Origin: an uncultured Acidobacteriota bacterium | GTDB lineage: Bacteria > Acidobacteriota > Vicinamibacteria > Vicinamibacterales > 2-12-FULL-66-21 | DNA length: 64,000 nt | Direction of reading: 5' to 3' | Assembly (NCBI GenBank): GCA_963717745.1 | Contig: CAVQXJ010000025.1 | Coordinates: 106,817-170,816 of the forward strand | Shown here: piece by piece, positions 4,841-55,290 of the stretch | How the letters are laid out: each line of letters opens with the position of its first letter | How positions within the stretch are numbered: position 1 is the first letter of the stretch | Program-made: the position numbers and the translations under genes | The notes under the pieces: generated by a model | Told to the model about the DNA's origin: nothing | The model's input: the letters and a program-made list of their open reading frames with translations, nothing else | Databases searched by the model: none

Positions 4841-4864
4841 GCAGTCGGAGGGTGGGAGTGCTAA
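4838..4864. promoter_or_regulatory. second, degenerate CIRCE-like repeat overlapping the -35 box
   Basis: CAAGCAGTC-N9-GAGTGCTAA. The right half is a perfect 9/9 match and the left half is 6/9. Confidence 0.35.
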
Positions 4865-5031
4865 ATCCCAAGCTCCAAGCTCCAAATCCCAACCACTCCC
4901 AACTACCAAATCCCAACCACAAATCCCAACTCCCAATTCCAACTCCCAACGGTGTTGGGGAGTGGCGGTCTTGTTTGGAGCTTGGGATTTGGGAGTGGTT
5001 GGGATTTGGAGCTTGGGATTTGGGATTTGAC
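4862..5031. repeat. family-A armed hairpin element, copy A1 (TCCCAA/GCTCCA units)
   Basis: Left arm: AAATCCCAAGCTCCAAGCTCCAAATCCCAACCACTCCCAA... Right arm: ...TTGGGAGTGGTTGGGATTTGGAGCTTGGGATTTGGGATTTGAC. The last ~50 nt are identical to copy A2. The element ends 6 nt from the stop of the Fis-type gene. Confidence 0.75.
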
Positions 5032-5036
5032 GATCT

Positions 5037-5243
5037 CTAACGACTCTTAATCCTGTATTGGCTCATCTTGCGGGTGACGGTGTTGCGGTGCAGGCCGAGC
5101 AGCTCAGCTGCTTCGCCGACGCCGCCGCTCGATCGCTCGAGGGCGCGGGTGATGAACACCTTTTCGAACTCCCGCCGGGCGTCGTCGTAGCGGACGCCGC
5201 GATCGAGCATCTGGCGCACGAGGCTTTCGAGCTGATCACGCAC
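5037..5243 (-). CDS. small Fis-type helix-turn-helix DNA-binding protein
   Basis: 68 aa with C-terminal GGVGEAAELLGLHRNTVTRKMSQYRI, a typical Fis/NtrC-type HTH. Confidence 0.7.
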   Translation of the reverse strand: MRDQLESLVRQMLDRGVRYDDARREFEKVFITRALERSSGGVGEAAELLGLHRNTVTRKMSQYRIKSR

Positions 5244-5252
5244 GAGCGGCGG

Positions 5253-6149
5253 CTACTGGAGCTCGGCGCCCGACAGCAGGCGGAAAGCTTCGACGTACTT
5301 CTCGCGCGTGCGGCGCACCACGTCGTCGGGCAGCGAGGGTACCGGCGGCTGCTTGTTCCACTTGATCTCTTCGAGGTAGTCGCGGACGTACTGTTTGTCG
5401 AAGCTCGGTTGGCCATGGCCAGGCTCGTAGGCGGCTTGCGGCCAGAAGCGTGAGGAGTCGGGGGTGAGGACTTCGTCGATGAGGATGATCTCACCGTCCG
5501 CCAAGCCAAACTCGAACTTCGTGTCGGCGATGATGATCCCCTTCGACTCGGCGTGCGCGACGCCGCGGCGATAGATCTCCAGCGTCAACGCTTTCAGCCG
5601 CGCGATCAGATCGGCCCCGACCAGCCGGCCGGCTTCTTCCTCGCTGATGTTCACATCGTGGCCGCTCTCGGCTTTGGTGGCCGGCGTGAAAATCGGTTCG
5701 GGCAGGCGATCGGATTCACGCAGGCCCGCCGGCAGCGTGATGCCGCAGACCTGCCCGGTCTGCTGATATTCCTTCCAGCCCGATCCCGACAAGTAGCCGC
5801 GCGCCACGCATTCGATCGGCACCGGCTCGGTGCGGCGGACCAGCATGGTCCGGCCCCGCAGCTGATCCGCGTGCTTGCGGGCGGCCTCAGGGAACGCGTC
5901 CACGTCCATCGAGATCAGGTGATGCGGGACGAGATCATCCATGCGACCGAACCAGAAGCCGGAGAGCTGCGTGAGCACGCGCCCCTTGTCCGGGATGCCC
6001 GACCCCAGCACGTAGTCGAAGGCCGAGATCCGGTCGGTGGTGACGATGAGCAGTTGATCGCCGATCTCGTAGACGTCGCGCACTTTGCCGCGGCGGTGGA
6101 GCGTCAGGCCATCGAGATCGGTGTGGAGGAGCGGTGCCGTGAATAACAA
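5253..6149 (-). CDS. purC: phosphoribosylaminoimidazole-succinocarboxamide (SAICAR) synthase
   Basis: 298 aa with GKVRDVYEIGDQLLIVTTDRISAFD...ECVARGYLSGSGWKEY...IADTKFEFG...LIDEVLTPDSSRFW, which are hallmark PurC motifs. Confidence 0.93.
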   Translation of the reverse strand: MLFTAPLLHTDLDGLTLHRRGKVRDVYEIGDQLLIVTTDRISAFDYVLGSGIPDKGRVLTQLSGFWFGRMDDLVPHHLISMDVDAFPEAARKHADQLRGRTMLVRRTEPVPIECVARGYLSGSGWKEYQQTGQVCGITLPAGLRESDRLPEPIFTPATKAESGHDVNISEEEAGRLVGADLIARLKALTLEIYRRGVAHAESKGIIIADTKFEFGLADGEIILIDEVLTPDSSRFWPQAAYEPGHGQPSFDKQYVRDYLEEIKWNKQPPVPSLPDDVVRRTREKYVEAFRLLSGAELQ

Positions 6150-6212
6150 GGTGGGCCTCTGAAAGACACGGAAGCTTACACGTGCTCGCGGCTCCGTGCA
6201 ACGTGCGGCGTA

Positions 6213-7406
6213 CTACTTTGTTTTTTCTTTCTCGAGCTTGTCGGCTGTGGGTGGGTCGGTGGTTTCCCGGGCCTGACGATCGGGGCCGCGGAGCACGAGG
6301 TCGGCGCGGGTGGACCGCACCGTGAGGGTCGGACCACCGCCTTTGACCTGGCCGCTGATGCGGGTTTCGTTCTTCTCGCCGGCCCGGTTGATCTTGAGGC
6401 CGAGCTCTTCCACGAGATCATCGGGAGTGACCCGGCCGTCCATCACCAGCGCGTCGAGCGTGAAGCCGGCGGGTGGCGGCGTGAGCACGACCCGTTCGCC
6501 CTCGTTGTAGATCTCGACCGGCGCCGCGGCTGCCATCACAACCGTGAGCTCGGCGTTCCGCACCTCGATGCGCGCCTCCGACCGCAGTCCCCTCATCGAG
6601 ATCTCGCCGCCGTTGGCGTTCACGCGGATCGGCCCGCGGGTCATCTCGAGATTGTCGAGCGTCAGGTCGACGTTCCGGGTCTCGACGTCGAGCTTCCCGG
6701 TCAGCCTGGCGGCCTCGAGCTCGCCCCCTTGCTCCATCTTGATCGCGGTATCGCCGCGCACCCCCTTCAGATTCACCGAGCCCGACCGACCGTTGAACTC
6801 CAGCGATCCGACATCCTCGATCGTCACTTCGCCGCCGCGGTGGGTGATCTCGACCCGTCCAGCGATTTGTCGGATGACGGCCTCGCCGCGCATCGACGTG
6901 ATCTCGACCGAGCCGACGTTCTTGACCGCCACCGTGCCCCCACCCGGCTCGATGCGGATGTGGAGGCGGGCCGGGACCTTGATCTTCAGGGTGCCGCGCT
7001 GCCGTCCGCCCTGGGGAAACTCCATCCGGAAAATCAGCGCCGAGGCGGTCTGGTCGGCGAGCAGCTTCGACTGGCGGATGTGTTCCTTCGCCTCCGCTTC
7101 GTCATAGCCGTTCGAGTGCACGAACAACGTGCTCTCGACGTCGGCCCGGTTCTCGCCGGTGACTTCGACTTCGGAGATCGGCCCGGTAATCCGGAGCTCG
7201 GTCAGCTCCGCCGGCAGCTTGTGGATCGTGGTGGTGGTGAGCTCTGCCGAGGCGCGATTGCCGCGGACTTCGCGGCGCGCTGCCTCGAGAAAACGGCCGA
7301 ACGAGAAGCCGCGCTGTCCCGGTCCTGGTTCGGGCGCGGTCACGTGATAGACCGCCGCCCCGACCATCACGAAACAGACGATGAGCAGTAACTCACGCTT
7401 GCCCAT
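6213..7406 (-). CDS. DUF4097-like beta-strand repeat protein (putative adhesin fold), N-terminal TM anchor
   Basis: ORF 6213..7460. The likely start is MGKRELLLIVCFVMVGAAVY (ATG complement of 7404-7406). It contains reiterated G-x-V-x-I/V-x segments such as GSVEITSMRGEAVIRQIAGRVEITHRGGEVTIEDVGSLEF. Confidence 0.65.
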   Translation of the reverse strand: MGKRELLLIVCFVMVGAAVYHVTAPEPGPGQRGFSFGRFLEAARREVRGNRASAELTTTTIHKLPAELTELRITGPISEVEVTGENRADVESTLFVHSNGYDEAEAKEHIRQSKLLADQTASALIFRMEFPQGGRQRGTLKIKVPARLHIRIEPGGGTVAVKNVGSVEITSMRGEAVIRQIAGRVEITHRGGEVTIEDVGSLEFNGRSGSVNLKGVRGDTAIKMEQGGELEAARLTGKLDVETRNVDLTLDNLEMTRGPIRVNANGGEISMRGLRSEARIEVRNAELTVVMAAAAPVEIYNEGERVVLTPPPAGFTLDALVMDGRVTPDDLVEELGLKINRAGEKNETRISGQVKGGGPTLTVRSTRADLVLRGPDRQARETTDPPTADKLEKEKTK

Positions 7407-7490
7407 AGACTTGGCGACGCTCCCCGTAGTAGAGTTCGCCGGGAGCGCGCCCTCGCACATCCCGGTTCCTGATCCCGACAGTCTTAACGC

Positions 7491-8965: not shown

Positions 8966-8996
8966 CCGGCTCGATGCAAAAGAGTGACGGGGGACG

Positions 8997-9534: not shown

Positions 9535-9541
9535 CGCGAGG

Positions 9542-9726
9542 AATCGCCAAAATTGCCAAAAGTGCCAACCTTGCCAAAATTGGGGGGATGTTCGACGAGA
9601 TAGCCACGACGGCCGAACCGGATGGTCACGGGCGTTCGAGGCGGTCTTCGGTCGGCGTCCGTGGCACGTAGCGGCGGAACACCCCCAAATTTTGGCAATC
9701 GTGGCACTTTTGGCATTCTTGGCAAT
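9542..9726. repeat. family-B armed hairpin element, copy B1 (GCCAA nonamer units)
   Basis: The left arm AATCGCCAAAATTGCCAAAAGTGCCAACCTTGCCAAAATTGGGGGG pairs with the right arm CCCCCAAATTTTGGCAATCGTGGCACTTTTGGCATTCTTGGCAAT. The centre is itself an extended hairpin. The element starts 8 nt after the DUF4390 stop and ends 5 nt before the kinase ATG. Confidence 0.8.
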
Positions 9727-9731
9727 CCCTG

Positions 9732-12030
9732 ATGGCCACCACCCTGCGTGACGTCCGGCCGGCGGCGCTGCCCGAGCCGCCGCGTGCCGCCGGGCAGGTC
9801 CCGGCCCGCCGGCCGTTCCGCGACAACCCCCGCCTGATCCTGCTCGGGATCGTGATCCTGCTGGTGGCGCTGGTCGCGATGGTCACCCTCGCCGACCGCG
9901 CGCCCGACTTCAATCCGAACTTCCTCACCGAGGTGCTGCTCTATGCACTCTCGGCCGCGGATCTGATGATGCTGCTGGCGCTGGGCTTCGTGCTGGCCCG
10001 CAACATCGTCAAGCTGGTCGTCGAGCGCCGGCGCGGTCTGCCGTTCTCGCGGTTCCGCGCCAAGCTGGTCGGCGCGCTGCTCGGCCTCACGATCATTCCG
10101 GCGTTGCTCGTCCTGCTGGTCGGCGGCGAGCTGATCCGCAGCAGCACCCGGAAGTGGGTGAGCCAGCCGGTCGACGCCGTGCTCACGTCGGCCCGCCAGA
10201 TCGCGAACGAGTACTACCGCGAGCGCGAGGACGAGGTGGTCCAGCGCGCCGCCGCGGTCGCGCGCGCCTTGCCGCCGGCGCTGGTCAAGGACGGCGCGTC
10301 GGAGGCGGTCCGGCGGCTGATCGAAGGGGGCATGACCGCGGCGCCGGTGCGCCGGGTCGAGGTGTATCGCGTCAGCGGCAACGCGGCGCCGGTCCTCGTC
10401 GCGGTCGTCGATCCGCGCCCGGGCCGCAGCGAATCGAATAGCGCCAGCGAAGGCTTCGTCTCGCGGGTCATGCGCGGAAGTGGGAACACGGCGCACGAAT
10501 CGCTCGCCGGTGGCGGCGAGCTGGTGCAGGCCGGCTCGCTCATTGTCGATCCCGGATCGAATCAGCCGGTCGGCGTGGTCATTGCCAGCGAGGAGCTGAC
10601 CGGGGCGCTGGCGACTGAATCGCGGAAAATCATCGGCGCGTACGAGAACTACACGCGTCTGCGGGTGATGACGCGTCCGCTGCAGGGCATGTACCTGTCG
10701 CTCTTCCTGATGATGACGTTGATGATTCTCGTCAGCGCCACCTGGATGGGCCTGTACCTGGCCAAGCGCATCACGCGGCCGGTCCACATGCTGGCGCAGG
10801 GCGCGCGCGAGATTGGCGCCGGCCACCTCGATCACCGCATCGAACCCGAGACCCGGGACGAATTCGGCGCGCTGATCGAGGCCTTCAACTCGATGGCGGG
10901 GGAGCTGGCGACCGGGCAGCGAACGCTGGAGCGCTCCCGGCTCGATCTCGAGCGCAAGAACCTCGAGCTCGAGGAACGGCGCCGCTACATCGAGACCGTC
11001 CTGGAGCGCATCGCCACCGGCGTGGTGTCGATCGGCGCGGACGGCCGCATCGAGACGGTCAACGGCGCGGCGCTGCGGCTCCTCGCGGTCGATCGCGGCG
11101 TGGTCGGCACGCTGGCGGCTGAAGTGTTCGATCGCGCCGATCTGCAGCCGCTCGGCGGGCTGCTGCGTCAGGCGCACGCCGGGGCCGGTCACGCCGCGCA
11201 CGAGGTCGCGATGGTCCGCGAGGGACGTGAGCTGCACCTGGCATCCGCCGCCACCGCCCTTCAGCGCGAGGACGGCAGCGTCGAAGGCGCGGTGCTGGTG
11301 TTCGACGACGTCACCCCGCTGATCCGGACGCAGCGCGTCGCCGCCTGGCGGGACGTGGCGCGCCGGCTGGCGCACGAGATCAAGAATCCGCTGACCCCGA
11401 TCCAGTTGTGCGCCGAACGGATGCGGCGGCACTTCATGACCGCCCCGGCGGCGGCGCGGGAGCTCGTCGACGAGTGCACCACGACCATCGTCGGCGAAGT
11501 GGAGTCGCTGAAGGGCCTGGTCGACGAGTTCGCGCATTTCGCGCGGATGCCGGCGCCGAAGGCGGTGCCGGAAGACCTGCACCGGATGCTGACCGAGGTG
11601 CTCGCGCTCTACAACGGGCTGTTCCAACGACATCCGCATCGACCGGAGGTTCGACGACGGCCTGCCGCCGGTGCGGATCGACGTCGAACAGATTCGGCGG
11701 GTCATCATCAACCTGGTCGACAACGCGGTCGAAGCGCTCGGCGGCAGCGCCGCCCGGCGCCCGCCGGCGGATCCGGCCGCGGCCATCACGGTCGAGACCC
11801 GCCACGACCCGGCGCAGGGGGTGGCGCGGATCGTGGTCGCCGACAACGGCCCCGGCATCTCCGCGGCCGATCGCGACAAGCTGTTCATGCCGTACTACTC
11901 GACCAAGGGACGAGGCAGCGGTCTCGGCCTCGCCATCGTCCGCCGGATCGTCGTCGAGCACGGCGGCAGCATCGAAGTGCACGACAATCAGCCGGCCGGC
12001 ACGCGCTTCGTGATCGAGTTGCCGCTGTGA
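9732..12030 (+). pseudogene. NtrY-like sensor histidine kinase (TM-HAMP-PAS-HisKA-HATPase), one extra base near 11625-11632
   Basis: ORF 9732.. carries the TM segments, HAMP, PAS and the H-box (RLAHEIKNPLTPIQL), up to ...LALYNGLFQ. ORF 11671..12030 carries the N/G boxes (VIINLVDNAVEAL...ADNGPGI...YYSTKGRGSGLGLAIVRRIV). The linking residues DIRIDRRFDDGLPPVRID read in the second frame. Confidence 0.85.
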
Positions 12031-12180: not shown

Positions 12181-13564
<1,384 letters not shown>

Positions 13565-13572: not shown

Positions 13573-13590
13573 TTGGATTCGCGAATCCAA
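13573..13590. repeat. 18-bp perfect palindrome TTGGATTCGCGAATCCAA (shares the CGCGAATCC core with family E)
   Basis: Read directly; the sequence is its own reverse complement. It lies 9 nt after the regulator stop codon. Confidence 0.6.
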
Positions 13591-13769: not shown

Positions 13770-13804
13770 GGGGGACCGAAGAAATGTTTGGTCCCCCTTT
13801 TTTT
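13770..13804 (+). terminator. rho-independent terminator
   Basis: GGGGGACC-gaagaaatgttt-GGTCCCCC followed by TTTTTTT. It lies ~205 nt after the regulator stop and 6 nt from the ftcD stop. Confidence 0.8.
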
Positions 13805-16526: not shown

Positions 16527-16996
16527 CGCGCGTCGCCGTCTTCATCGCGACCGTCGGCTACTGCGGATATTCTCCGATCGCACCAGGGACGGTCGGTTCC
16601 GCGGCCGGTCTGCTGTTCTACCTGATCGTCTGGTGGGCGCAGTCGCCGCTGGTCGAGATCCTGCTCATCCTGCTGCTCTTTGGCGTCGGCGTCTGGGCCG
16701 GGACCACGTCGGAGCGCTATTTTGGCGGCATCGATCCCGGGCCGATCGTGGTGGACGAGGTGGTGGGCATGCTCATCACTCTCGCCCTCATCCCCGTCAG
16801 CCTCTCCGGCGCGTTGATCGGATTTCTCTTGTTCCGCCTGTTCGACGTGATCAAGCCGTTCCCCGCGGGGCGGTTCGAGAAGCTGCATGGCGGCCTCGGC
16901 GTGATGGCCGACGATGCGATGGCGGCGGTGTACGCGAACATCGCGCTGCGGGTCATCGGTTATCTGCGGCCCGAGTGGGTAGTGTCTTTTTCATGA
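16523..16996 (+). CDS. pgpA: phosphatidylglycerophosphatase A
   Basis: GTG 16523 overlaps the RDD stop (GTGA). Reads VTRVAVFIATVGYCGYSPIAPGTVGSAAG...GGIDPGPIVVDEVVGM...FRLFDVIKPFP...GGLGVMADD. Confidence 0.85.
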   Translation: MTRVAVFIATVGYCGYSPIAPGTVGSAAGLLFYLIVWWAQSPLVEILLILLLFGVGVWAGTTSERYFGGIDPGPIVVDEVVGMLITLALIPVSLSGALIGFLLFRLFDVIKPFPAGRFEKLHGGLGVMADDAMAAVYANIALRVIGYLRPEWVVSFS

Positions 16997-17003: not shown

Positions 17004-17164
17004 GTCAAATCCCAAATCCCAAGCTCCAAGCTCCAACCACTCCCAAACGCCAAATCCCAAAGTTGTTGGAATTCGGGAGGTTGGGAGTTTGGAGTTGGAA
17101 GTTAGCTTTGGGAGTTGGGATTTGGGAGTGGTTGGGATTTGGAGCTTGGGATTTGGGATTTGAC
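17004..17164. repeat. family-A armed hairpin element, copy A2
   Basis: The left end GTCAAATCCCAAATCCCAAGCTCCAAGCTCCAACCACTCCCAAACGCCAAATCCCAAAG pairs almost perfectly with the right end CTTTGGGAGTTGGGATTTGGGAGTGGTTGGGATTTGGAGCTTGGGATTTGGGATTTGAC. It starts 8 nt after the pgpA stop. Confidence 0.8.
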
Positions 17165-18478: not shown

Positions 18479-18724
18479 GGCCGCCTGCGGCGGCACGACG
18501 ACACGACGAGACGACGAGACGACGTAAATACCAGGCCACGACGGAACGTCCGGGCATTTCCCAAGAGCCCCTCGTCTGCCGGCAGCCGGACACGTATCAA
18601 GGGCTCTCCCCGTTGGCGCCGACGCCAACGGGCAGCGTCCGTCGACGTGACTCACAAAGGTTTTCGTCGTGTCGTCGTGTCGTCGTCTCGTCCTGGCGCG
18701 AGGCGCCAGCCCGCCGCAGGCGCC
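18479..18724. repeat. family-D armed, nested hairpin structure (ACGACGA(C/G) units)
   Basis: Outer stem: GGCCGCCTGCGGCGG / CCGCCGCAGGCGCC. Arms: ACGACGACACGACGAGACGACGAGACGACG / CGTCGTGTCGTCGTGTCGTCGTCTCGTCC. Inner perfect hairpins: CCGTTGGCG-ccga-CGCCAACGG and CTGGCGC-gag-GCGCCAG. It lies between cinA and plsY. Confidence 0.7.
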
Positions 18725-19371: not shown

Positions 19372-20408
19372 GTGAGGCGATAGGCGCGCTCATGCCCGAG
19401 CGCGATTCGGGAACGTCGAGCGTCGCGGTGCTGGGGGCCGGCAGTTGGGGCACCGCCCTGGCAATTCACCTGGCTCGAACCGGCCACGAGGTCCGCCTGT
19501 GGGCCAGGGACCCCGGCGTCGTCGTCGAGATCGAACGGACCCGCCGCAACTCCCGGTATCTGCCGGAACTGGTCATTCCTGATCTGGTTGCACCGACCTG
19601 CGACATGCGGGGCGCGCTCGGTGGCGCGTCGCATGTGGTGTTCGCGCTGCCCTCGCACGTGCTCCGTACGATCGCCCGCGAGGCGGTTCGCTCGCTCGAA
19701 TCGACGGCGGTGGTGATCAGCGCGGCGAAAGGGCTCGAATCCGGGTCGCTGGCGCGGATGTCGCAGATTCTGCGCGAGGAAACCGCGGACACGCGGCCGG
19801 TGGTCGTGCTGTCGGGTCCCAGCTTTGCGCTCGAAGTCGCGCGCGGGCTGCCGACCGCCGTCCTCGCCGCCTCGGCCGACGCCGGCGCCGCCGAAGCCGT
19901 GCAGCATGAATTCCGCGGCCCGGCTTTCCGGCTCTACGCGAGCGACGACGTGATCGGCGTCGAGATTGGCGGCGCGCTGAAGAACGTGATTGCGATTGCC
20001 GCCGGCGTCGTCGAGGGCACCGGACTTGGCTACAACGCGATGGCGGCGCTGATCACGCGGGGTCTCGTGGAGATCTCACGTCTCGCGACGGCAGAGGGCG
20101 GACGCCGTGAGACATTGGCGGGCCTGAGCGGCCTCGGGGATCTGGTGCTGACGTGCACCGGCGATCTGAGCCGCAATCGCCGCGTCGGCGTCGAGCTCGG
20201 TCGCGGCGGCGCAGTCCAGGACGTGCTGGCCGGCATGCACATGGTCGCGGAAGGCGTGCGGACGACCGGCGCCGCGCTCGCGCTCGGCGAACGCCATGGC
20301 ATCGAGCTTCCGATCACGGCGCAGATGGCGGCGGTGCTCGATGGCCGCCGCACGCCGCGCGAGGCGGTCGAGGCGCTGATGGTCCGGCCGCAGCGGCAGG
20401 AGGCCTGA
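19368..20408 (+). CDS. gpsA: NAD(P)H-dependent glycerol-3-phosphate dehydrogenase
   Basis: ATG 19368 overlaps the plsY stop (ATGA). Reads VAVLGAGSWGTALA...RNSRYLP...GPSFALEVA...GGALKNVIAIAAG...GLGDLVLTCTG..SRNRRVG. Confidence 0.9.
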   Translation: MSEAIGALMPERDSGTSSVAVLGAGSWGTALAIHLARTGHEVRLWARDPGVVVEIERTRRNSRYLPELVIPDLVAPTCDMRGALGGASHVVFALPSHVLRTIAREAVRSLESTAVVISAAKGLESGSLARMSQILREETADTRPVVVLSGPSFALEVARGLPTAVLAASADAGAAEAVQHEFRGPAFRLYASDDVIGVEIGGALKNVIAIAAGVVEGTGLGYNAMAALITRGLVEISRLATAEGGRRETLAGLSGLGDLVLTCTGDLSRNRRVGVELGRGGAVQDVLAGMHMVAEGVRTTGAALALGERHGIELPITAQMAAVLDGRRTPREAVEALMVRPQRQEA

Positions 20409-20410
20409 CC

Positions 20411-20551
20411 ATTGCCAAGAATGCCAAGATTGCCAAAATTGCCAAAATTTTGGGGGAGTTCGGTCAACTAGCCATGATGGTCGGCTCTAGCCAGGACCGG
20501 CGCATTGCCCCCCAATTTTGGCATTCTGGCATTCTTGGCACTTTTGGCAAT
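20411..20551. repeat. family-B armed hairpin element, copy B2
   Basis: ATTGCCAAGAATGCCAAGATTGCCAAAATTGCCAAAATTTTGGGGG...CCCCCCAATTTTGGCATTCTGGCATTCTTGGCACTTTTGGCAAT. It starts 3 nt after the gpsA stop and ends 15 nt before the ftsY ATG. Confidence 0.85.
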
Positions 20552-23203: not shown

Positions 23204-24433
23204 ATGACACCCACACGAGCCCGGCGCAAGTCGGCCTTCGCCCCAATCGACGAGGCGGTCGAGGCCTTTCGCAACGGCGACATGATCATCGTCGTCGACG
23301 ACGAGGACCGTGAGAACGAAGGGGATTTGACGGTCGCGGCCGAGAAGGTGACGCCGCAGGTGATCAACTTCATGGTCACGCATGGCCGCGGCCTGGTCTG
23401 CGTGGCCTTGACCGAGGACCGGCTCGCCGAGCTCGACCTGCCGCACATGGTCCGCGAGAACACCTCCCAGTTCGAGACCGCGTTCACGGTCACCATCGAT
23501 GCGAAAGGCGTGACCAGCACCGGCGTGTCAGCGGCCGATCGCGCGGCCACGATTCTGGCGACGATCAATCCGCGCACCCGTCCTTCGGACCTGGCGCGGC
23601 CGGGCCATGTCTCGCCGCTGAAGGCGCGCAAGGGCGGGGTCCTGGTGAGAGCGGGGCAGACCGAGGCGGCAGTCGACCTGGCCCGCATCGCCGGGTTGTA
23701 TCCGGCCGGCGTCATCTGCGAAATCATGAACAAGGACGGCAGCATGGCGCGCGTCCCCGAGCTCACGCGCTTCGCCAAGCGGCACAAGCTGCCGATGATC
23801 ACCATCGCCGATCTGATCCAGTACCGGATGCGGACCGAGGCGCTGGTGCGGCGGGTCGCGTCGGCGGCGCTGCCGACCGCGCAAGGGGACTTCCGGGTCA
23901 TCGCGTTCGAGAGCCAGCTCGACGGCGAAACCCACGTGGCGCTGGTCCGCGGCGAGATCGGCGACGGCGAGAACGTGCTGGTGCGCGTCCACTCGAAGTG
24001 CCTGACCGGCGACGTCTTCCACTCGGCGCGGTGCGACTGCGGTCCGCAGCTCGACGCGGCGATGACCCGCATCGCCGACGAGGGGCGCGGCGTGCTGCTC
24101 TACCTCAATCAGGAAGGCCGCGGAATCGGGCTGGCCAACAAGATTCGCGCCTACGAGCTGCAGGATCAGGGGCTCGACACCGTCGAGGCGAACGAGCGTC
24201 TCGGCTTCAAGGCGGATCAGCGCGACTACGGCATCGGCGTCCAGATTCTGAAGGATCTCGGCGTGCGGTCGATGCGCCTGCTGTCGAACAATCCCCGCAA
24301 GCTGGTCGGCATCGAGGGCTACCAGCTCTCGGTGGCGGAATGGCTCCCCCTGGAGATCGCGCCGTCGGACCACACGCGCGGCTACCTGAAGACCAAGAAA
24401 GAGAAGCTCGGCCACAAGCTCACCTCGGTCTGA
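23204..24433 (+). CDS. ribBA: bifunctional 3,4-dihydroxy-2-butanone-4-phosphate synthase / GTP cyclohydrolase II
   Basis: Internal ATG 23204. Reads ...[16 protein letters not shown]...RPGHVSPL...[12 protein letters not shown]...[21 protein letters not shown]...[12 protein letters not shown]. Confidence 0.95.
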
Positions 24434-24441: not shown

Positions 24442-24659
24442 ATTGCCAAGAGATGCCAAGATTGCCAAAATTAGCGGGCCATTCGCAGCCTCGGGGCTGA
24501 ATTCGTCAGTCCGGGTATCTCGCGGCGCTGTTGATCGCCTACCTTCGAACAGAACTCAAACCGACGGCGCGGCGGATCACCCAGCCAGTTCTGGAATCCC
24601 CGACCTTCGACAAACCCCCAAATTTTGGCACTCTTGGCATTTTTGGCATTCTTGGCATT
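24442..24659. repeat. family-B armed hairpin element, copy B3 (longest centre, ~150 nt)
   Basis: ATTGCCAAGAGATGCCAAGATTGCCAAAATTAGCGGG...CCCCCAAATTTTGGCACTCTTGGCATTTTTGGCATTCTTGGCATT. It starts 9 nt after the ribBA stop. Confidence 0.8.
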
Positions 24660-24743
24660 TGACGACCGCGCGTGAGCGCGTTACGATAAACGTTTGTTTC
24701 GTAAGCCCTTAGCGTCTCAGAGAAGGCCGTAACCGCTTCCCCG

Positions 24744-26096
24744 ATGTTCGACTCACTCAGCGATCGCCTGCAGGGGGTGTTCCGCTCGCTTCGCGGCGAA
24801 CGCCTGACGGAGCAGACCGTCGAGGCGGCGCTGCGCGAGATCCGCCTGGCGCTGCTCGAAGCGGACGTCAACTTCAAGGTCGTCAAGGCGTTCATCGACC
24901 GAGTGCGCGACCGCGCGGTGGATCAGGATGTCCTGAAGAGTCTGACGCCGGAGCAGCAGGTGGTCCGCATCGTCCGCGACGAGATGCTGGCGCTGTTCGG
25001 CGACACCCAGGGAGGCCTGCCGCCGTCGCAGGCCCGGCCGCGCGTGATCCTGCTGCTTGGCCTCCAGGGTTCGGGCAAGACGACAACCTCGGGGAAGCTG
25101 GGGCGATGGCTGGCGAAACAGGGGCGTCATCCGCTGCTGGTGTCGACCGACGTCCGGCGTCCCGCGGCGATTCAGCAGCTGGCGGTGGTCGGCAAGCAGG
25201 CGGGGGTACGGGTCTACGACCCGGCCGACGAGATGGATCCCGTCAAGCGCGCGAGCGGCGCGCTGACCGAAGCGCGCAACGCCGGGTTCGACGTCGTGAT
25301 CGTGGACTCGGCGGGCCGCCTGCACATCGACGATGAGCTGATGGACGAACTGCAGGCGATCAAAGCCGCGGTTCAGCCCTCGGACCTGCTGTATGTCGCG
25401 GACGCGATGACCGGGCAGGACGCGATCAAGAGCGCCGGTGAGTTCAACCGGCGGATCGGCATCTCCGGAGTGGTGCTCTCGAAGATGGACGGCGACGCCC
25501 GCGGCGGCGCCGCGTTGTCGGTCGTCGGCGTGGTCGGCGTCCCGATCGCGTTCGTCGGCAGCGGCGAGCGGCTGCAGGATCTGGAGCCGTTCCATCCGGA
25601 TCGTGTGGTGTCGCGGGTCCTCGGGATGGGCGACGTGCTGTCGCTGATCGAGAAGGCCGAGGAAGCGGTCTCGCAGGAGGACGCCGAAAAGCTCGAGCGC
25701 AAGATCCGGATGAACGAGTTCACGCTCGAGGATTTCCGCGATCAGCTGCGCACCATCAAGAAGATGGGACCGATCGAGCAGATTCTCGGCATGCTGCCCG
25801 GCATGGGCAATCTGAAGGAGCTCGCGGCGAACCGCGAGCAGGTCGACGAGAAGCAACTGGGGCGGGTGGAGGCGATCATCAATTCGATGACCCCGCAGGA
25901 GCGGCGCAATCATCAGTTGCTCAACGGGAACCGTCGCAAGCGCATCGCCCGCGGCAGCGGGACGTCGGTCGAGGAGATCAACCGCCTGCTGAAGCAGTTC
26001 GTGCAGATGCAGAAGATGCTGAAGCAGCTCGGCGGGATGGTCGGCGGCAAGAAGAAGATGCGCGGCCTCGGGGCGATGAAGGGGATGTTGAAGTAG
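24744..26096 (+). CDS. ffh: signal recognition particle protein Ffh
   Basis: MFDSLSDRLQGVFRSLRG...LLGLQGSGKTTTSGKL...DVRRPAAIQQL...DSAGRL...SKMDGDARGGAA, with a Met-rich M domain. Confidence 0.95.
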   Translation: MFDSLSDRLQGVFRSLRGERLTEQTVEAALREIRLALLEADVNFKVVKAFIDRVRDRAVDQDVLKSLTPEQQVVRIVRDEMLALFGDTQGGLPPSQARPRVILLLGLQGSGKTTTSGKLGRWLAKQGRHPLLVSTDVRRPAAIQQLAVVGKQAGVRVYDPADEMDPVKRASGALTEARNAGFDVVIVDSAGRLHIDDELMDELQAIKAAVQPSDLLYVADAMTGQDAIKSAGEFNRRIGISGVVLSKMDGDARGGAALSVVGVVGVPIAFVGSGERLQDLEPFHPDRVVSRVLGMGDVLSLIEKAEEAVSQEDAEKLERKIRMNEFTLEDFRDQLRTIKKMGPIEQILGMLPGMGNLKELAANREQVDEKQLGRVEAIINSMTPQERRNHQLLNGNRRKRIARGSGTSVEEINRLLKQFVQMQKMLKQLGGMVGGKKKMRGLGAMKGMLK

Positions 26097-40399: not shown

Positions 40400-41381
40400 C
40401 CGCGCTCGTCGACGCGCTGCGGGCCGCGTTCGGCGACCGCGTGCAGGTCGGATGAGCCACTCTCGCCGTTCACCACGTTCAAGGTGGGCGGCCCGGCCGA
40501 CCTGTTCGTGACGGTGGACCGGCCCGAGCAGCTGCAGCAAGCCGCGACACTCGGCGTGGGCCGCGAGCGTGCCGGTCACCGTCATCGGCGGCGGATCGAA
40601 CTCCTGATTGCGGACAGCGGGGTCCGAGGGCTGGTGATACGCGTGCGCGGCGGCGAGGTCCGCGAGGGCGGCCCAGGACGGGTGCGCGCCGATGCGGGCG
40701 TCACCATCAACGGACTGGTGCGCTGGACCATCGCCCACGGGCTCGCCAGCCTCGAAGCGTGGGCCGGCACGCCGGGGACGGTCGGCGGCGCCATCTATGG
40801 CAACGCGCATTTTCAGGGGCGCAACATCGGCGATCTCGTGGAGGCGGTCCGGTTGCTGGATCGCGACGGCCGCGTCCAGGACGTGCCGGCCGCCGACATG
40901 GAATTCGCCTACGACTACAGCCGGCTGCAGCGGACCGGGGAGATCGTGCTGTCCGCCGATTTCCGGGTGACCGCCGGCGATCCCGAGCAGTTGCGCGCGG
41001 TGGCGCGCGAGTCGCTGGCGTATCGAAAGCGCACCCAGCCGCTCGCGATGCCGAGCGCCGGCTGCATCTTTCAGAATCCGGCGCCGGACCACGATTCGCT
41101 GCCGCCCGGCATGCCGTGGTCGGCCGGAGCGCTGGTCGATCGCGCCGGGCTCAAAGGCGCGCGCGAAGGAGAGGCCCGGGTGTCGCCCACCCACGGCAAC
41201 TTCATCGTCAACGAAGGCGGGGCCTCGGCCGGCGACGTGCGGCGACTGATCGATCGGTGCACGTGACGGCGTGTATCGGAAGTTCGGCGTGCGGCTGCGG
41301 GAAGAGATTGTGAGCATGGGGTTCGAGCGCGGCGTGGACACGGCCATGCGCGCGGCGACGTCGGAAGGGACGGAGGACTGA
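40396..41381 (+). pseudogene. murB: UDP-N-acetylenolpyruvoylglucosamine reductase MurB, about four frame breaks
   Basis: ATG 40396 (ATGA overlap with pxpC) gives MTALVDALRAAFGDRVQV. Then DEPLSPFTTFKVGGPADLFVTV. Then SAWAASVPVTVIGGGSN. Then LLIADSGVRGLVIRV...AGTPGTVGGAIYGNA...SAGCIFQNP...SPTHGNFIVN. Then DGVYRKFGVRLREEIVSMGF...* (TGA 41379-41381). Breaks lie near 40450, 40548, 40601 and 41262. Confidence 0.85.
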
Positions 41382-42641
41382 TGGCGACATTGCGGATCGA
41401 GGGAGGACGGCGGCTGTCGGGCGCGGTGACGGTCGAAGGGAACAAGAACTCCGCGCTGCCGCTGATTGCGGCCTGCCTGCTGACCGACGAGGAATGCACG
41501 ATCGCCAACGTGCCCCGCATCCGCGACGTCGAGGTGCTGCTCGAGCTGCTGCGCGGGCTGGGCGCCACGGTCGAGGGCGCGGGCACGCCGACGTTGCGCA
41601 TCCAGTGCGAGACGGTGACGACCGAGCGGCCCGATCCGGTGCTGGTGGGGAAGCTGCGCGGCTCGGTGCTGCTGCTCGGGCCGCTGCTGGCGCGGCGCGG
41701 GGCGGCGCGGCTCGCGCCGCCGGGCGGCGATTTTCCGGCGCGCCGCACCATCAGCACGCACCTGCAGGCGCTGGTGGCGCTCGGGGCCGTCCCGCGTCGA
41801 CGAGCCGGGGCATGCGCTGGACGCGCCGGATGGCCTGACCGGCGCGTCCTTCTATCTGGACGAGGCGTCGGTCACCGGCACCGAGACCGCGCTGCTGGCG
41901 GCGGCCGCCGCCCGCGGCCGGACCGGAGATCCGCCACGCGGCGATGGAGCCGCACGTCGGCGAGCTGTGTCACTTTCTCCGGGCCATGGGCGTCGGCATC
42001 GAGGGCATCGGCACATCGACGATTCGGGTCGACCCGCCGGCCCGGTGCACCGGCGCGACCCATCGCCTCGCACGGCGACTACATCGAGGCGGGCAGTTGG
42101 GGAGTCGTGGCCGCGATCACCGGCGGCGAGATCGACCGTCACCGGCGCCCGCGCCGAAGACATGGAAGTGATTGCGGCGCCGCTGCGCCAGATGAACCTG
42201 CAGTGCAGCTACGAGGACAATCGGTTCACGGTGGAGCCGTCGACGCTGACCGCGACCCGCCGGATCACCACCGGCCTCTGGCCGGGCTTTCCGAGCGACA
42301 TGGTCAGCCTCGTCACCGTGCTCGCGACCCAGGCCGAGGGCCGCACGCTCGTCCACGACTGGCTCTACGAGCTGCGTCTGTTCGCGCTCGAGCAGCTGAG
42401 CGCGATGCGCGCCGATCTGTTTCTCTGCGATCCGCACCGCATCATCGTCAGCGGCCCGAAGAAGCTGCGCGGCCGGATGCTCGACGCGCGCGATCTCCGG
42501 TCGGGGATGGCGTTGATTGCCGCCGCGCTCGCCGCCGACGGCGAGAGCCGGGTGACGCCGCTCGAGACGGTCGAGCGCGGCTATGCGTCGCTGGTCGAGC
42601 GGCTGCGGTCGCTCGGCGCGAGCGTGGAGCGGGAGAACTGA
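41381..42641 (+). pseudogene. murA: UDP-N-acetylglucosamine 1-carboxyvinyltransferase MurA, four extra bases
   Basis: MATLRIEGGRRLSGAVTVEGNKNSALPLIAACLL...KLRGSVLLLGPLLARRG...PGGDFPARRTISTHL..L.ALGA. Then VDEPGHALDAP...FYLDEASVTGTETALLAAA. Then EIRHAAMEPHVGELCHFLRAMG. Then GDYIEAGSWGVVAAITGGEI. Then VTGARAEDMEVIAAPLRQMN...GFPSDMVSL...DLRSGMALIAAALAADGES...VERGY..L.ERL..LGA. Breaks lie near 41790, 41923, 42068 and 42137. Confidence 0.9.
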
Positions 42642-42645: not shown

Positions 42646-42784
42646 ATTGCCAAGAATGCCAAGATTGCCAGATGCCAGATTGCGGGGAAGATCCGCACGG
42701 CATCTCACGTCCCGCCGATTGAGCCAGTTCGAGAAGTTGCCCGCCAAATTTTGGCAATCTGGCACTTTTGGCATTCTTGGCAAT
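42646..42784. repeat. family-B armed hairpin element, copy B4
   Basis: ATTGCCAAGAATGCCAAGATTGCCAGATGCCAGATTGCGGGG...CGCCAAATTTTGGCAATCTGGCACTTTTGGCATTCTTGGCAAT. It fills the gap between the convergent murA stop (42641) and secretin stop (42788), leaving 3-4 nt on each side. Confidence 0.85.
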
Positions 42785-42787: not shown

Positions 42788-44675
42788 CTACCCGCCGCCG
42801 CCCTTCTTCACCGGCGGCGGTGGCGTCGCCGGCGGCAGGATCGGCGCGGCCGTCCCGGGCAGCGTGCCTTTCATCGGATCGGTCGCCGGGGCGCCGGGCT
42901 GGCGGGGCTGCGGAAATGTTGGCGCCCGGGGCGTGTTCGGGTCGGTCCCATCGGGATCGCGGTCGCGCGGAATGGTCGCCGGCTGCTCGGGCATCTGAGC
43001 TGGGGGCGGCGCCGCCGCATCCCGGCCGAGCCTGAACGGACGCAGATCGGACTCGGACAGGTCGAGCACGCGCACGATGTGCGGCGTCAGCGTCAGGACG
43101 ATGTCGGATCGTGCACTTCCTTGCGAGTGGCTGGCGAACAGCCGGCCGATCAACGGCAGATCGCTGAGGCCGGGAAGCCCGGTCATGACCGTCCGCTCCT
43201 CATCGCGGATCAGTCCGGCGAGCATGTTCGTCTCGCCGTCCTTCAACCTGATGGTCGTGGTGATCTCCCGGTTGCCGAATGTCGGCAGTCCGTTCAGCGA
43301 TCCCGAGATGTTGCTGAGCGAGATCTTCAACGTCAGCGACACCTCGTCGTCGTGGTGCGTCCGCGGCGTGATGTCGATGTTGACGCCGATCGGCTCGTAG
43401 ACGACCGAGGTGATCGGCTGCTGATTGATGCCGCCGGTGGCGATCGGCGCGAAGGTCGTCACCGGGACCGGGACCCGCTCTCCGAATCGCGCCGTCGCTG
43501 CCACGCCTTCGGACGCGCGCAGCTGCGGATTCGCCAGCGTCCGGGTGGACGAGTCGTTCTTCAGCAGGCGGTAGTAGAGCGCCGGCAGTCCCGTGACCAG
43601 CACCTGCGCCTGGGTCAGGTTGCGCAGATCCCTCATCGTCAGGCCCTCGCGATTCGGCGTCGAGCGACCCGGCGATCCCGTCGCTGCCGGGAGTCGCGAA
43701 CTGGAGCCCGTACTCGCGGATCCGGTTCCGATCGACTTCGAGCAGCTCGACGTCGATGACCAGCTCCGGGCGGGCCTTGTCGATCGCGGCGATCAGCCGC
43801 CCCGCCGCCGCGATCCGCTCGGGCGTGTCCTTGAGCGAGATGGCGTTGATGGCGGTCGTTGGTGAGATCTGCCGCACGTCGACGACGACGCGCAGGAGGT
43901 CGATGACTTCCTTGAGGTCCGCGTTGCTGACGTAGAAGGTCTGGACGATCTGTTCTTCGTACTCGCGGCGCTTCGCCGGGGTGTCCGGAACGATGGTGAT
44001 GGTCCGAGGCGCGGTCACGCGATAGAAGGTCCGCGTCGTCGCGGTCAGCGACGCCAGCGCGGTCGCGAGGGTGGTGTTCCGGAAGTCGGCGGTCACGCGT
44101 TCGTCGCGGAAGGCGGGATCGAACACCACGTTCAGGTTGGCCCACTTCGCCAGCGCCTGGAACACCAGCCGGCTGCCGACACTGAACGTCATGGAATCGG
44201 GCAGCTTCGGGCCATCCGGCAGCTCGAAGCCGATTGGCCCCAGCGCCCGCGAGCGTTCGATCAGCGCCTGCAGCTCGGTCTTGTCGCCGCGCTCGATCGC
44301 GACCTTGGTTCGCAGCCGGTGCCGAACCTCCCGCAGCTCCGACTCCGCTGTCGCGTTGGTGGGGTTGAGCTCGGTGGCGAGCTGCAGCTCGACCGCCGCT
44401 TCCTGATAGCGCTCCGACGCCGACAGCCGGCGCCCCCGCATGTAGTGTTCTTCGGAGGCGCGAATCCTGACCCGGTCGAGCGACATCCGGGCCGCGCGAT
44501 TGTCAGGATTCCGGCGCAGGGCGTTGGTGTATTCGACGACGGCGCGGTCGAAGTCCGACCGCCGCTCCGCCTGCTCGGCCAGACGCATGGCGCTGCCGCT
44601 GGCGCAGGCGGCACAGAACAGGCCGGCGGCCAGGACGACGATCAACGCAGGCCGTGCGTCAGGGGGTCTTGCCAC
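42788..44675 (-). pseudogene. secretin-family outer-membrane channel (GspD/PilQ superfamily) with TPR-like N-terminal region, one extra base near 43644-43646
   Basis: ORF 43200..44675 reads ...LAAGLFCAACASG..., TPR-like helices, then N-domain text (TFYVSNADLKEVIDLLRVVVDVRQISPTTAINAISLKDTPERIAAAGRLIAAIDKARPELVIDVELLEV). ORF 42788..43636 holds the secretin core (NPQLRASEGVAATARFGERVPV...VGVNIDITPRTHHDDEVSLTLK...TTTIRLKDGETNMLAGLIRDEE....GLPGLSDLPLIGRLF...LTLTPHIV). Confidence 0.8.
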
Positions 44676-52503: not shown

Positions 52504-52560
52504 GCAACCTGGTCAGTGTATCCGCTCGCTCCGAACCGCGCCAACCCATCGCCCGGAAAT

Positions 52561-53732: not shown

Positions 53733-54301
53733 TACTTGCCCAGCAGCTCGCCGTCCTTCTTCTTCTGCAGCTCGTCGATCATCGTCACGTGCTGATCGGT
53801 GATCTTCTGGACGTCTTCGAGACCCCGCCGCTCGTCGTCTTCCGAGATCTGGTGATCTTTGAGCAGCTTCTTGAGCCGATCGTTGGCGTCGCGCCGCACC
53901 TGCCGGACGCCGTTGCGTCCTTCCTCGGCGTACTTGTGCACCAGCTTCGACAGCTCCTTGCGCCGTTCCTCGGTCAGCGAGGGAATCGGGATCCGCACCA
54001 CCTTGCCGTCGTTGGTGGGATTCAGGCCGAGGTTCGAGCTGCGAATCGCCTTCTCGATCGCCCCCATCAGCGAGGGATCGAACGGCTGCGCGACGATCAG
54101 CGTGGGCTCGGGAATCGAGAGCGACGCCACCTGATTGAGCGGCATGTGGGAGCCGTAGGCTTCGACGTGCACGGTGTCGAGGATGGTGACCGACGCCCGG
54201 CCGGTGCGCACGCCGCCGAACTCGCGCCGCACGTGATCGAGCTGCGTGTCCATCCGCTTCTTCACTTCCGCTGCCAGTTCCTTCAGATCACTGACGTCCA
54301 T
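53732..54301 (-). CDS. frr: ribosome recycling factor
   Basis: ...VRTGRASVTILDTV.VEAYGS.MPLNQVA....PE......QPFD.S....IEKAI..S.LGLNP..DG...RIPIP.LTEERR. Confidence 0.95.
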   Translation of the reverse strand: MDVSDLKELAAEVKKRMDTQLDHVRREFGGVRTGRASVTILDTVHVEAYGSHMPLNQVASLSIPEPTLIVAQPFDPSLMGAIEKAIRSSNLGLNPTNDGKVVRIPIPSLTEERRKELSKLVHKYAEEGRNGVRQVRRDANDRLKKLLKDHQISEDDERRGLEDVQKITDQHVTMIDELQKKKDGELLGK

Positions 54302-54317
54302 AACTCCTCACTCAGGG

Positions 54318-54442
54318 GAATGCCAAAAATGCCAAGACTGCCAAGATTGCCAAAATTTGGAGGTGGCTCGCGGCTACTGTCCGGACGCTCGGACCTGCCC
54401 CCAAGTTGTGGCATTTTTGGCACTCTTGGCATTTTTGGCAAT
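54318..54442. repeat. family-B armed hairpin element, copy B5
   Basis: GAATGCCAAAAATGCCAAGACTGCCAAGATTGCCAAAATTTGGAGG...CCCCCAAGTTGTGGCATTTTTGGCACTCTTGGCATTTTTGGCAAT. It lies between the pyrH stop (54448) and the frr Shine-Dalgarno/start (54301). Confidence 0.85.
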
Positions 54443-54447
54443 GGGAT

Positions 54448-55164
54448 TCAGGCTCGCACCGTCGTCCCAACCGGGTCGCCCATGATGACGCGACGGACGT
54501 TGCCCGCCGTTCGTAGATTGAACACCACGATCGGGAGCTTGTTGTCCATGCAGAGCGAGATGGCGGTGGCGTCCATCACTTTGAGACGGCGCTCGAGCAC
54601 CGTCATGTAGGAGATGTCGTCGTACTTCGTCGCGGTCTTGTCGAGCGCCGGGTCGGCGGTGTAGATGCCGTCGACCTTGGTGCCCTTGAGGATGACGTCA
54701 GCCTTGATCTCCATCGCTCGCAGGGCCGCCGCGGTGTCGGTGGTGAAGTAGGGGTTGCCGGTGCCTGCCGCGAAGACGACCACCCGCCCCTTCTCGAGAT
54801 GGCGCACCGCCCGCCGCCGGATGAAGGGCTCGGCGACCGCGCGCATCTCAATCGCGCTGGCGACCCGCGTCAGCACGCCCTGATGCTCGAGCGCGTCCTG
54901 CAACGCCAGCGCGTTGATCACGGTTGCGAGCATGCCCATGTAGTCGGCGGTCGCGCGATCCATGCCCTTCGCGCTGGCCGCCAGCCCGCGGAACAGGTTG
55001 CCGCCGCCGATGACGACCGCGGTCTGCACACCGAGACCCTGGATTTCGGCGATGTCCTTGGCGATCTGCGTGGTGATGGCGGGGTCGATACCGAACGCCT
55101 GTTCGCCCATCAAGGCTTCACCGGAGAGCTTGAGGAGCACACGGCGGTACGCGGGGTCTGGCAT
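54448..55164 (-). CDS. pyrH: UMP kinase
   Basis: [13 protein letters not shown]......GID.........I.......[13 protein letters not shown].......[24 protein letters not shown]. Confidence 0.95.
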
Positions 55165-55193
55165 ATCCGGACGATTATATTCGGAGCTTCGCT

Positions 55194-55290
55194 GTTCGCG
55201 TCCGCGGGCCGCGGTCCGCGAATCCTCGATGCTCGTCGAGAGCCTGATTCGGGATTGCCGGACGGCGGTCCGCGGATCGCGGTCAGCGGG
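55194..55290. repeat. family-E armed hairpin element (GTTCGCG/GTCCGCG units), copy E2
   Basis: GTTCGCGTCCGCGGGCCGCGGTCCGCGAATCC...GGATTGCCGGACGGCGGTCCGCGGATCGCGGTCAGCGGGTTC lies between the tsf stop and the pyrH start. It shares CGCGAATCC and AATCCCGAATCAG with 2619-2652. Confidence 0.6.

Follow-up and report, generated by a model that had tools for sequence, protein, structure and literature searches.

Intergenic hairpin elements with tandem-unit arms in a Vicinamibacterales chromosome segment

Short tandem repeats arranged as inverted pairs have previously been described in Xanthomonas, where GGGAATC heptamer arrays consist of 2 to 26 tandem units and mostly occur as inverted pairs able to form stem-loops, termed "convergent" by the authors (Rehm et al. 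2015, PLoS One, PMC4692102). These arrays are 89 to 93% intergenic, lie mostly between same-direction open reading frames (ORFs) and rarely between divergent ones, and are on average 28 nt from the upstream ORF but 160 nt from the next ORF. They vary in length and sequence between close relatives and are mostly transcribed, and their function is unknown (PMC4692102). We analyzed a 64,000-nt chromosome segment of a soil member of the Vicinamibacterales (Acidobacteriota), contig CAVQXJ010000025.1 (the whole stretch is referred to as the window), which carries intergenic hairpin elements made of two inverted arms (25 to 60 nt) of degenerate 7-, 8-, or 9-nt tandem units around a copy-specific center. 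The elements are real and add a case to a known but poorly understood type of bacterial repeat. A first-pass annotation of the same DNA had taken the architecture to be unrecognized, a view that is no longer tenable because the inverted GGGAATC arrays precede it and are its closest precedent; hairpins of Prevotella and Cylindrospermum are further cases.

The window elements resemble the Xanthomonas arrays in having inverted tandem units of about 7 nt on both arms (periods of 7, 8, and 9 here), and they are likewise intergenic, near the upstream stop codon, not in divergent gaps, and variable in length between relatives. The unit GGGATTT of one of the families found here, family A, also resembles GGGAATC and GGGGATT. 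However, the elements belong to another phylum and have other unit sequences, and several unit families with periods of 7, 8, and 9 are present. The pattern GGGNATC with at least four G3 tracts is not found, and G3 tracts occur in family A only. Furthermore, window arms keep a fixed, complex unit order that is common to several loci, like terminal inverted repeats, and presence or absence between strains is shown for the window elements.

Architecture and position of the elements

Tandem Repeats Finder detected arrays of period 7 (families A, C, and E), 8 (family D), and 9 (family B) on both sides of each locus listed below. In an inverted-repeat scan the arms paired over 23 to 74 nt with 77 to 96% complementarity. 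The elements are as follows, with the score from an ungapped Watson-Crick hairpin scan where it was 16 or higher.

A1, 4862-5031: heptamer arms AATCCCA/AGCTCCA; from a fis-like HTH_8 gene (stop at 5037, minus strand) to the groES promoter and CIRCE-like operator; score 32.
A2, 17004-17164: heptamer arms of 59 nt, 90% complementary; from pgpA (stop at 16996) to cinA; score 41.
B1, 9539-9730: nonamer arms WWTGCCAAR with inner TTTGGGGG; from a DUF4390 gene to an ntrY-like kinase gene; score 25.
B2, 20411-20551: nonamer arms; from gpsA (stop at 20408) to ftsY; score 18.
B3, 24442-24659: nonamer arms; from ribBA (stop at 24433) to the ffh promoter-like motif TTGACG-17-TACGAT; score 17.
B4, 42646-42784: nonamer arms, 93% complementary; between a convergent murA-like gene and secretin gene; score 22.
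B5, 54318-54442: nonamer arms; from pyrH (stop at 54448, minus strand) to frr; score 25.
C1, 12049-12162: GTTGCCA against ACTGGRA, with one regular mismatch per unit; from the ntrY-like gene (stop at about 12030) to an ntrX-like gene (ATG at 12182).
C2, 26099-26176: heptamer arms; from ffh (stop at 26096) to rpsP.
D1, 18479-18724: octamer arms CACGACGA/GACGACGA, a G+C-rich outer stem, and a structured center; from cinA to plsY; score 21.
E1, 55194-55290: G+C-rich, GTCCGCG/GTTCGCG units; from tsf (stop at 55292, minus strand) to pyrH.
E2, 2619-2649: small hairpin containing two units of GTTCGCG; between the groEL stop codon, which it adjoins directly, and a canonical terminator at 2582-2615.
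E3, 13573-13590: perfect 18-nt palindrome TTGGATTCGCGAATCCAA; 8 nt past the stop codon of the ntrX-like gene.

The assignment of loci to families A to D and of E1 to family E agrees with the first-pass annotation. E2 and E3, which it had listed as partial copies of family E, are weak, and their membership is doubtful. For family B the conserved region is longer than proposed and extends through TTTGGGGG-N-GTTCG into what had been taken as the center.

RNAfold predicted one long stem per element, with energies (in kcal/mol) of -101 (A1), -106 (A2), -102 (B1), -71 (B2), -91 (B3), -75 (B4), -70 (B5), -46 (C1), -25 (C2), -143 (D1), and -61 (E1). The Watson-Crick scan of the window yielded eight hairpins with scores of at least 16 (17 to 41), and these are exactly A1, A2, B1 to B5, and D1. 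In 10 dinucleotide-preserving shuffles of the window the maximum score was 15. These eight elements are therefore not chance hairpins. C1 (score 12) and E1 (score 13) fall inside the shuffle noise on this measure. E1 and C2 are weaker hairpins, but orthologous copies exist in other contigs; the support for C1 consists of its period-7 arrays and its fold. The same scan of about 0.9 Mb of unrelated bacterial loci gave approximately 0.035 strong hairpins per kb, compared to 0.125 per kb in the window, and also met tandem-unit hairpins in Prevotella, Cylindrospermum, and other Acidobacteriota, indicating that the architecture is enriched in the window but not unique to its organism. The elements fill about 2.6% of the window, at roughly one per 6 kb.

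Copies of a family have arms in common but not centers, as had been proposed: 25 to 49 identical arm nucleotides occur at unlinked loci. An A1 arm and an A2 arm are identical over 49 nt of complex unit order, and 25 identical nt are shared by B1 and B4 and by B2 and B4. In L133 the orthologue of this A1 arm is different, suggesting that dispersed copies exchange sequence. Terminal inverted repeats are conserved among copies: the A ends have about 40 nt in common (GTCAAATCCCA..AATCCCAACCACTCCCAA), and B copies have the end ATTGCCAAGAATGCCAA and the inner AAATTTGGGGG in common. Centers of the same family cannot be aligned with each other, and apart from orthologues nothing in the window or the compared loci matches them. 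Between families, the units of A, B, and C have a T(G/C)CCA(A/G) core in common, again as had been described. However, A, B, and C are connected by no more than this core of 5 to 6 nt, and D and E have no link to them, so a single superfamily in the sense of common descent of A to E is not supported. The families with a CCA-type core also agree in polarity, with ..CCA(A/G) units in the 5' arm and (C/T)TGG.. in the 3' arm on either strand. The mirror polarity was never seen among the A, B, and C copies of the window or in contigs L005 (11363-11527), L001 (6821-6878), L104, L125, and L126, although the independent families are too few for statistics.

Family B sequences were also found outside the window. 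A scan of genome contigs with the 17-mer ATTGCCAAGAATGCCAA returned matches of which those listed were mostly chance or coding, with real arrays at no fewer than about five loci among them (L017, L029, L066, L070, and L104). A metagenome scan with the 22-mer CACTTTTGGCATTCTTGGCAAT found four contigs, and this 22-mer recurs in another acidobacterial metagenome-assembled genome (MAG) (L070, with its orthologue L127), a Terriglobia MAG (L066), and a related metagenome contig (L128). It forms hairpins in L125, L126, and L104 and one-armed arrays behind stop codons in L029 and L070/L127. The case for a family that extends through the genome is built on the 11 copies within 64 kb, on those of other strains and lineages, and on breaks of short-read contigs in arms. 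In three viral scans, one contig (L144, 11120-11160; IMG/VR UViG_3300012354_000005; 58% G+C) contained 30 nt identical to an A arm, inside an ORF; two other matches were due to chance. The stretch in L144 provides the codons of a signal-peptide-like sequence, LLLGIWSLGFGIS, that opens a long ORF, and it has no inverted partner there.

All elements are intergenic and no coding sequence of the window is interrupted, as the first-pass annotation had stated. However, its estimate that copies begin 2 to 12 nt after a stop codon needs revision, as 11 of the 13 elements start 0 to 8 nt past the upstream stop codon, with exceptions at about 20 nt (C1) and 47 nt (D1). The gaps are 0 nt for E2, 1 nt for E1, 2 nt for B2, 2 to 4 nt for C2, 5 nt for A1 and B5, 7 nt for A2, 4 to 7 nt for B1, and 8 nt for B3 and E3; B4 lies 4 nt and 3 nt from the stop codons of its two convergent genes. 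The other 12 elements are between same-direction genes, and none of the divergent gaps in the gene map of the window holds an element. At the other side, the elements end just ahead of the promoter or ribosome-binding site of the next gene. The GGAG ribosome-binding site of rpsP overlaps the last C2 arm unit, and the probable TTG start of cinA (about 17159) is inside the last bases of the A2 right arm. B3 ends exactly at the -35 hexamer of the ffh motif TTGACG-17-TACGAT; this motif (24663-24691), followed by AAACGTTTG, is located upstream of ffh and is conserved in all relatives (L001, L002, L004, and L005). A1 adjoins the groES promoter (TTGACA-16-TAGAAT) and the CIRCE-like inverted repeat.

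Two features of the groES region were observed in addition.

4786-4865, minus strand: groES promoter/operator; the promoter lies between the two TTAGCA..TGCTAA arms of the CIRCE-like repeat, and these 26-nt arms are unusually far apart (28 nt).
4645-4713, minus strand: groES leader region; three small tandem hairpins with a 26-nt period, kept in related contigs.

Presence, absence, and resizing between strains

Closer contigs, with flanks 94 to 99% identical to the window, were reached via identical RpsP, GroES (from the ATG), PyrH, and NrdR proteins, and more distant syntenic relatives have 70 to 84% nucleotide identity to the window. Contigs L129 to L143 come from metagenomes of farmland and soil. 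Exact-protein look-ups with a 953-amino-acid ORF, with frr, and with groES from an upstream GTG start gave no matches. Presence/absence polymorphism in relatives, which had been set as a test of the proposed family, was found, with different alleles of A1, C2, B1, and B3. The elements are thus insertions relative to close relatives.

C2 is absent from contig L129, which has a 24-nt gap at this site and flanks that are 98.8 to 99.3% identical. In the more distant L004, C2 is present with an identical left arm and one additional right-arm unit. A1 is absent from L131, in which the stop codon is followed by 2 nt and then the operator. In L133, A1 is present with the same center and about 30 nt more arm, and contig L132 begins inside the arm. 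Exactly at the empty A1 site of L131 (near its position 433), the identity to the window changes: it is 93.8% toward HTH_8/purC and 99.0% toward groES, which may mark a recombination breakpoint. L138 also carries B1. There the center is 96.8% identical, one unit is missing, and 89 nt are inserted in the right arm. This insertion (L138 1967-2055) is structured (-49 kcal/mol), lies within one nonamer unit with a target-site duplication of at most 1 nt, and has no relative among all sequences compared. Judged by gene coordinates only, the B1 site in another contig with identical NrdR is a 50-nt gap, compared to 194 to 276 nt in others. The B3 site is empty in L004 (TGAAG-GCATT-TGACGG).

At other junctions the more distant relatives have no element. 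The pgpA and cinA genes overlap at the A2 site in syntenic relatives, the gpsA-ftsY gap at the B2 site has no B element, and the D1 stretch corresponds to short intergenic gaps with LigT between cinA and plsY. No clear target-site duplication was found in three empty/filled pairs (A1 in L131 versus the window and L133, B3 in L004, and C2 in L129); GCATT occurs at either end of B3 but overlaps with the arm unit. Gain or loss of units between orthologues was observed for A1 versus L133, B1 versus L138, L070 versus L127, and C2 versus L004, and the short-read contigs L132 and L125 start inside arms. Behind ribBA, different lineages carry different hairpins, and relatives carry hairpins with other units (GCTTCCA, GCCAGTA, and GCTCGTN) at other sites.

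Arm-matching changes between copies, for which a test had also been proposed, were found for two elements compared to contig L136. In E1 the center is kept and both arms are changed, with one double change, two one-sided changes (C-G to U-G), and no broken pairs. In the B5 orthologue both arms and center have diverged, and TGGCAA and TTGCCA have changed together on opposite arms. Arm complementarity is thus retained through changes on both arms.

Comparison with other repeat classes

The proposal that the elements are not REP/BIME, ERIC, Correia, or CRISPR sequences holds, as defining features of these classes are missing. Like REP, BIME, and REPIN sequences (PMC2817692, PMC3116915, and PMC3733652), the elements are extragenic, dense palindromic repeats found mostly downstream of genes, form long hairpins as inverted dimers with a variable spacer, have no target-site duplication, differ in presence between strains, and are probably transcribed within operons. 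However, the REP monomer is an imperfect palindrome of 20 to 40 nt with a GTAG or CGTC tag. Single window arms are A/C-rich or G/T-rich unit runs (AAATCCCAAGCTCCAA and ATTGCCAAGAATGCCAAG) that are unable to self-pair, and pairing is only arm to arm. No GTAG or CGTC tag was found at the ends of families B to E. In family A, CGTC precedes AAATCCC at one end of each window copy, but it is missing from that place in the L133 orthologue of A1. Because the arms are not self-palindromic and there is no consistent tag, assignment to this class was rejected. A cluster of REP-like palindromic units of about 35 nt, GACGAGCCGCGGATTCGCGCGGATCCCTTT, in both orientations and BIME-like, was observed in contig L122 (18598-18915; also in L123 and L124), and this motif resembles family E units.

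Bacterial MITEs (miniature inverted-repeat transposable elements; Correia/NEMIS, ERIC, RUP, Nezha, and Chunjie) are similar in being non-coding and intergenic, with a length of 75 to 250 bp, conserved terminal inverted repeats, insertion polymorphism, and hairpins in transcripts. In contrast, the window elements have no target-site duplication, no conserved interior, internally tandem-repetitive terminal repeats, and no known parent insertion sequence. They are thus not classical MITEs, with which they share terminal inverted repeats but neither target-site duplication nor a common interior.

Acidobacterial hosts are shared with the terminal inverted repeat (TIR) families beside TIRYT (RAYT-like) genes, e.g., in Koribacter versatilis (Di Nocera et al. 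2013, PMC3733652). These families are moderately abundant, occur as singles, dimers, or clusters, and some have the motif GGGGWSAS. The B arms end in GGGGG-W-GTTCG, which, compared by motif alone, fits GGGGWSAS at only six of eight positions. The TIRYT-linked families may provide a lead for a mobilizer. The cyanobacterial STRR and Beggiatoa TAACTGA repeats (PMC4679880) are also intergenic tandem heptamers of unknown function with a patchy phylogenetic spread, but they are mostly one-armed direct arrays rather than long hairpins behind stop codons, and TAACTGA arrays are often located just upstream of start codons, unlike the window elements.

Several functional classes were also considered and rejected. 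The elements are not intrinsic terminators, as no arm is followed by a T run, several elements are inside operons, and true terminators are nearby. The window has canonical intrinsic terminators with T tracts at 2582-2615 and 13770-13797, indicating that the elements are not the ordinary terminators of this organism. The terminator at 13770-13797, downstream of the ntrX-like gene, has an 11-bp stem followed by T7. Integron attC sites can be dismissed, as the ends are GTCAAATCCC and ATTGCCAAG rather than GTTRRRY and the flanks are syntenic housekeeping genes rather than cassettes. CRISPR arrays do not fit, since the arms are inverted rather than direct, each locus has one center, and the loci are spread over 50 kb. 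A sigma-54 promoter reading of TGGCAC..TTGGCA fails on the GG-to-GC spacing, which is 10 nt rather than 12 nt. A search of the 64-kb window against Rfam at the gathering score gave tRNA-Ala as the sole match.

Possible origin and significance

Our preferred reading, held with moderate confidence, is that the elements are non-coding, non-autonomous palindromic elements that insert without target duplication, have slippage-prone arms, and are tolerated in slots behind stop codons. They would spread by a duplication-free mechanism, possibly with a trans-acting enzyme that recognizes the arm ends or the single-stranded hairpin; alternatively, copies could spread through ectopic recombination with one another or through conversion. 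Once inserted, the arms would evolve by replication slippage and might be kept matched by strand-internal template switching or by selection. Copies would survive only in the narrow slot from a stop codon to the next promoter or ribosome-binding site. The transcript would fold into a long hairpin that rejoins the upstream stop and the downstream start, so that there would be little effect on operon expression. If the elements bring a benefit, for instance by blocking 3' exonucleases or providing an RNase III site, it would be of secondary importance.

Several observations do not sit easily with this reading. No transposase or other mobilizing gene, including RAYT, was found among 40 ORFs of the window compared to Pfam. 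Centers are unique to each copy, which is unusual for copy-and-paste elements and needs either many subfamilies outside the window or frequent center replacement. Some sites without an element may have lost it rather than being ancestrally empty, and C2, although it predates the split of the window and L004 lineages, is not present in L129. For the five B copies of the window, the match between the two arms of one copy is hardly better than that between arms taken from different copies, indicating that most of the complementarity reflects a palindromic family consensus. Across family B the excess of own over foreign arms is weak (0.67 versus 0.60; permutation p of about 0.001, driven by distant members). 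With no clear own-arm excess in the window, per-element coevolution depends on few orthologue comparisons. Fold energies of the sense and antisense strands show no consistent bias and thus give no evidence that the mRNA strand is under selection.

The source of the centers was also considered. Captured phage or plasmid DNA is unsupported by BLAST, although the collections are poor in acidobacterial sequence: A2 had no match among plasmids, and the B3 and D1 centers compared to phages and the B1 center compared to plasmids gave borderline chance matches only. Local or duplicated genomic sequence was rejected as well, as the centers have no match beyond orthologues and are absent from empty sites.

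The alternative that survives best, though we consider it unlikely, is that these are locally evolved functional RNA hairpins (exonuclease barriers, RNase III sites, or translational coupling devices) grown by slippage and quasi-palindrome template switching. Like arms at different sites would then result from convergence or conversion and not from transposition. The lineage-specific hairpins at the same site behind ribBA are consistent with this explanation, as are the changes in both arms that preserve pairing, the location 0 to 8 nt past stop codons, and the mostly transcribed Xanthomonas arrays (PMC4692102); the one-armed arrays of other Acidobacteriota could be precursors. However, close strains with near-identical flanks lack A1, C2, and B1, indicating that the hairpin is dispensable at those sites, and relatives cope with overlapping genes at the same junctions. 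Arm identities of 43 to 49 nt with complex unit order at unlinked loci cannot be convergent. The absence of the centers from empty sites indicates that they are not local sequence, and a sense-strand energy bias is lacking.

A role at the DNA level appears improbable. The units would be iterated binding sites of a protein conserved in acidobacteria (a nucleoid protein or recombinase, for example), or the B arms would be inward sigma-70-type promoters. The B arms match TTGCCA-16/17-(TG)CCAAAAT and provide three of five promoter-like hits in 17 kb, with 1.1 expected from shuffles. These matches are as follows.

9553-9580: B-arm match to TTGCCA-16-CAAAAT with an upstream TG, pointing into the center.
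20412-20439: B-arm match of the same form, pointing into the center.
20523-20550: B-arm match of the same form, pointing into the center.

The occurrence of the same 22-mer in Vicinamibacterales and Terriglobia contigs although copies evolve fast, and the TNCCA(A/G) core common to A, B, and C, would also fit a binding site. However, the promoter matches cover only 9 of 12 positions and follow from the 9-nt period, and the pattern is missing from families A, C, D, and E. There is no known candidate protein, and units of 7 to 9 nt are short for a binding site. Loops of 34 to 136 nt make cruciform extrusion from double-stranded DNA unlikely, which also counts against a role of the duplex.

A more far-reaching proposal, for which we likewise see little probability, is that the arms are recognition arrays of an undescribed, Acidobacteriota-wide mobilization or recombination system that inserts hairpins right behind stop codons with no target-site duplication and exchanges centers by way of the arms, so that a center would be cargo and not decayed filler. 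If true, it would explain the 22-mer common to Vicinamibacterales and Terriglobia contigs despite fast turnover, the copy-specific centers, and the invariant arm polarity, and analogous systems might underlie the Xanthomonas and cyanobacterial heptamer arrays.

Simple-sequence repeats forming G-quadruplexes or i-motifs, as proposed for the GGGNATC arrays of Xanthomonas and Nostoc, are a very unlikely explanation. The family A 3' arms do have at least six G3 tracts, and their unit GGGATTT is near GGGGATT of Nostoc and GGGAATC of Xanthomonas, but runs of G3 tracts are lacking in families B to E, whose copies show that this architecture can do without a quadruplex, and a G-rich arm always faces a complementary arm that competes with a quadruplex. 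Chance inverted repeats or artifacts of an error-prone long-read assembly, which many frameshifted housekeeping genes and the position of C1 and E1 within shuffle noise might suggest, are refuted for 10 of the 11 main elements by the eight scores above every shuffle and by independent short-read assemblies of other samples (L133, L136, L138, and L004), which have the same elements in the same places, so that the elements are not assembly artifacts; C1 has neither support.

The excess of heptamer repeats in bacterial genomes such as those of Xanthomonas and cyanobacteria has no accepted mechanism or function. Here, coexisting unit families and empty, filled, and resized alleles in public metagenomes make the origin testable, with transposition on one side and slippage plus template switching on the other. 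The elements lie inside core operons (ffh-rpsP, tsf-pyrH-frr, and groES) and differ between strains that are 94 to 99% identical. They are therefore a source of fast regulatory and structural variation, could be used as strain markers, and break contigs when metagenomes are assembled. Vicinamibacterales, almost entirely uncultured, rank among the most abundant bacteria in soil, and no description of their repeat content was found in the literature searched.

The window has a G+C content of 68% overall and 62 to 72% along its length. Its Ffh is 86 to 91% identical to proteins of contigs labeled Vicinamibacterales or Acidobacteria, and several long metagenome contigs of Vicinamibacterales share its gene order between the RDD/pgpA genes and DNA polymerase X. 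The gene map, based on G+C third-position frame analysis and homology, includes the core genes ffh, ribBA, cinA, pgpA, the ntrY/ntrX-like two-component pair, frr, pyrH, pilQ, groEL, purC, nrdR, murB, murC, rpsB, rpsI, rplM, pilM, and tRNA-Ala. Five genes are split between reading frames.

2650-4250: groEL.
9732-12030: ntrY-like kinase gene, with a C-terminal stretch that runs on in a second frame and ends at 12030.
12182-13564: ntrX-like regulator gene, with the HTH_8 domain in a different frame.
41381-42641: murA.
42788-44675: secretin gene.

Because housekeeping genes are split by frameshifts, the window is probably an error-prone long-read assembly, and the splits are probably indel errors rather than pseudogenes. 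Element positions based on ORFs were corrected by hand for this reason. A near-perfect 16-bp palindrome (58101-58134) in the divergent rplM/pilM gap may be an operator.

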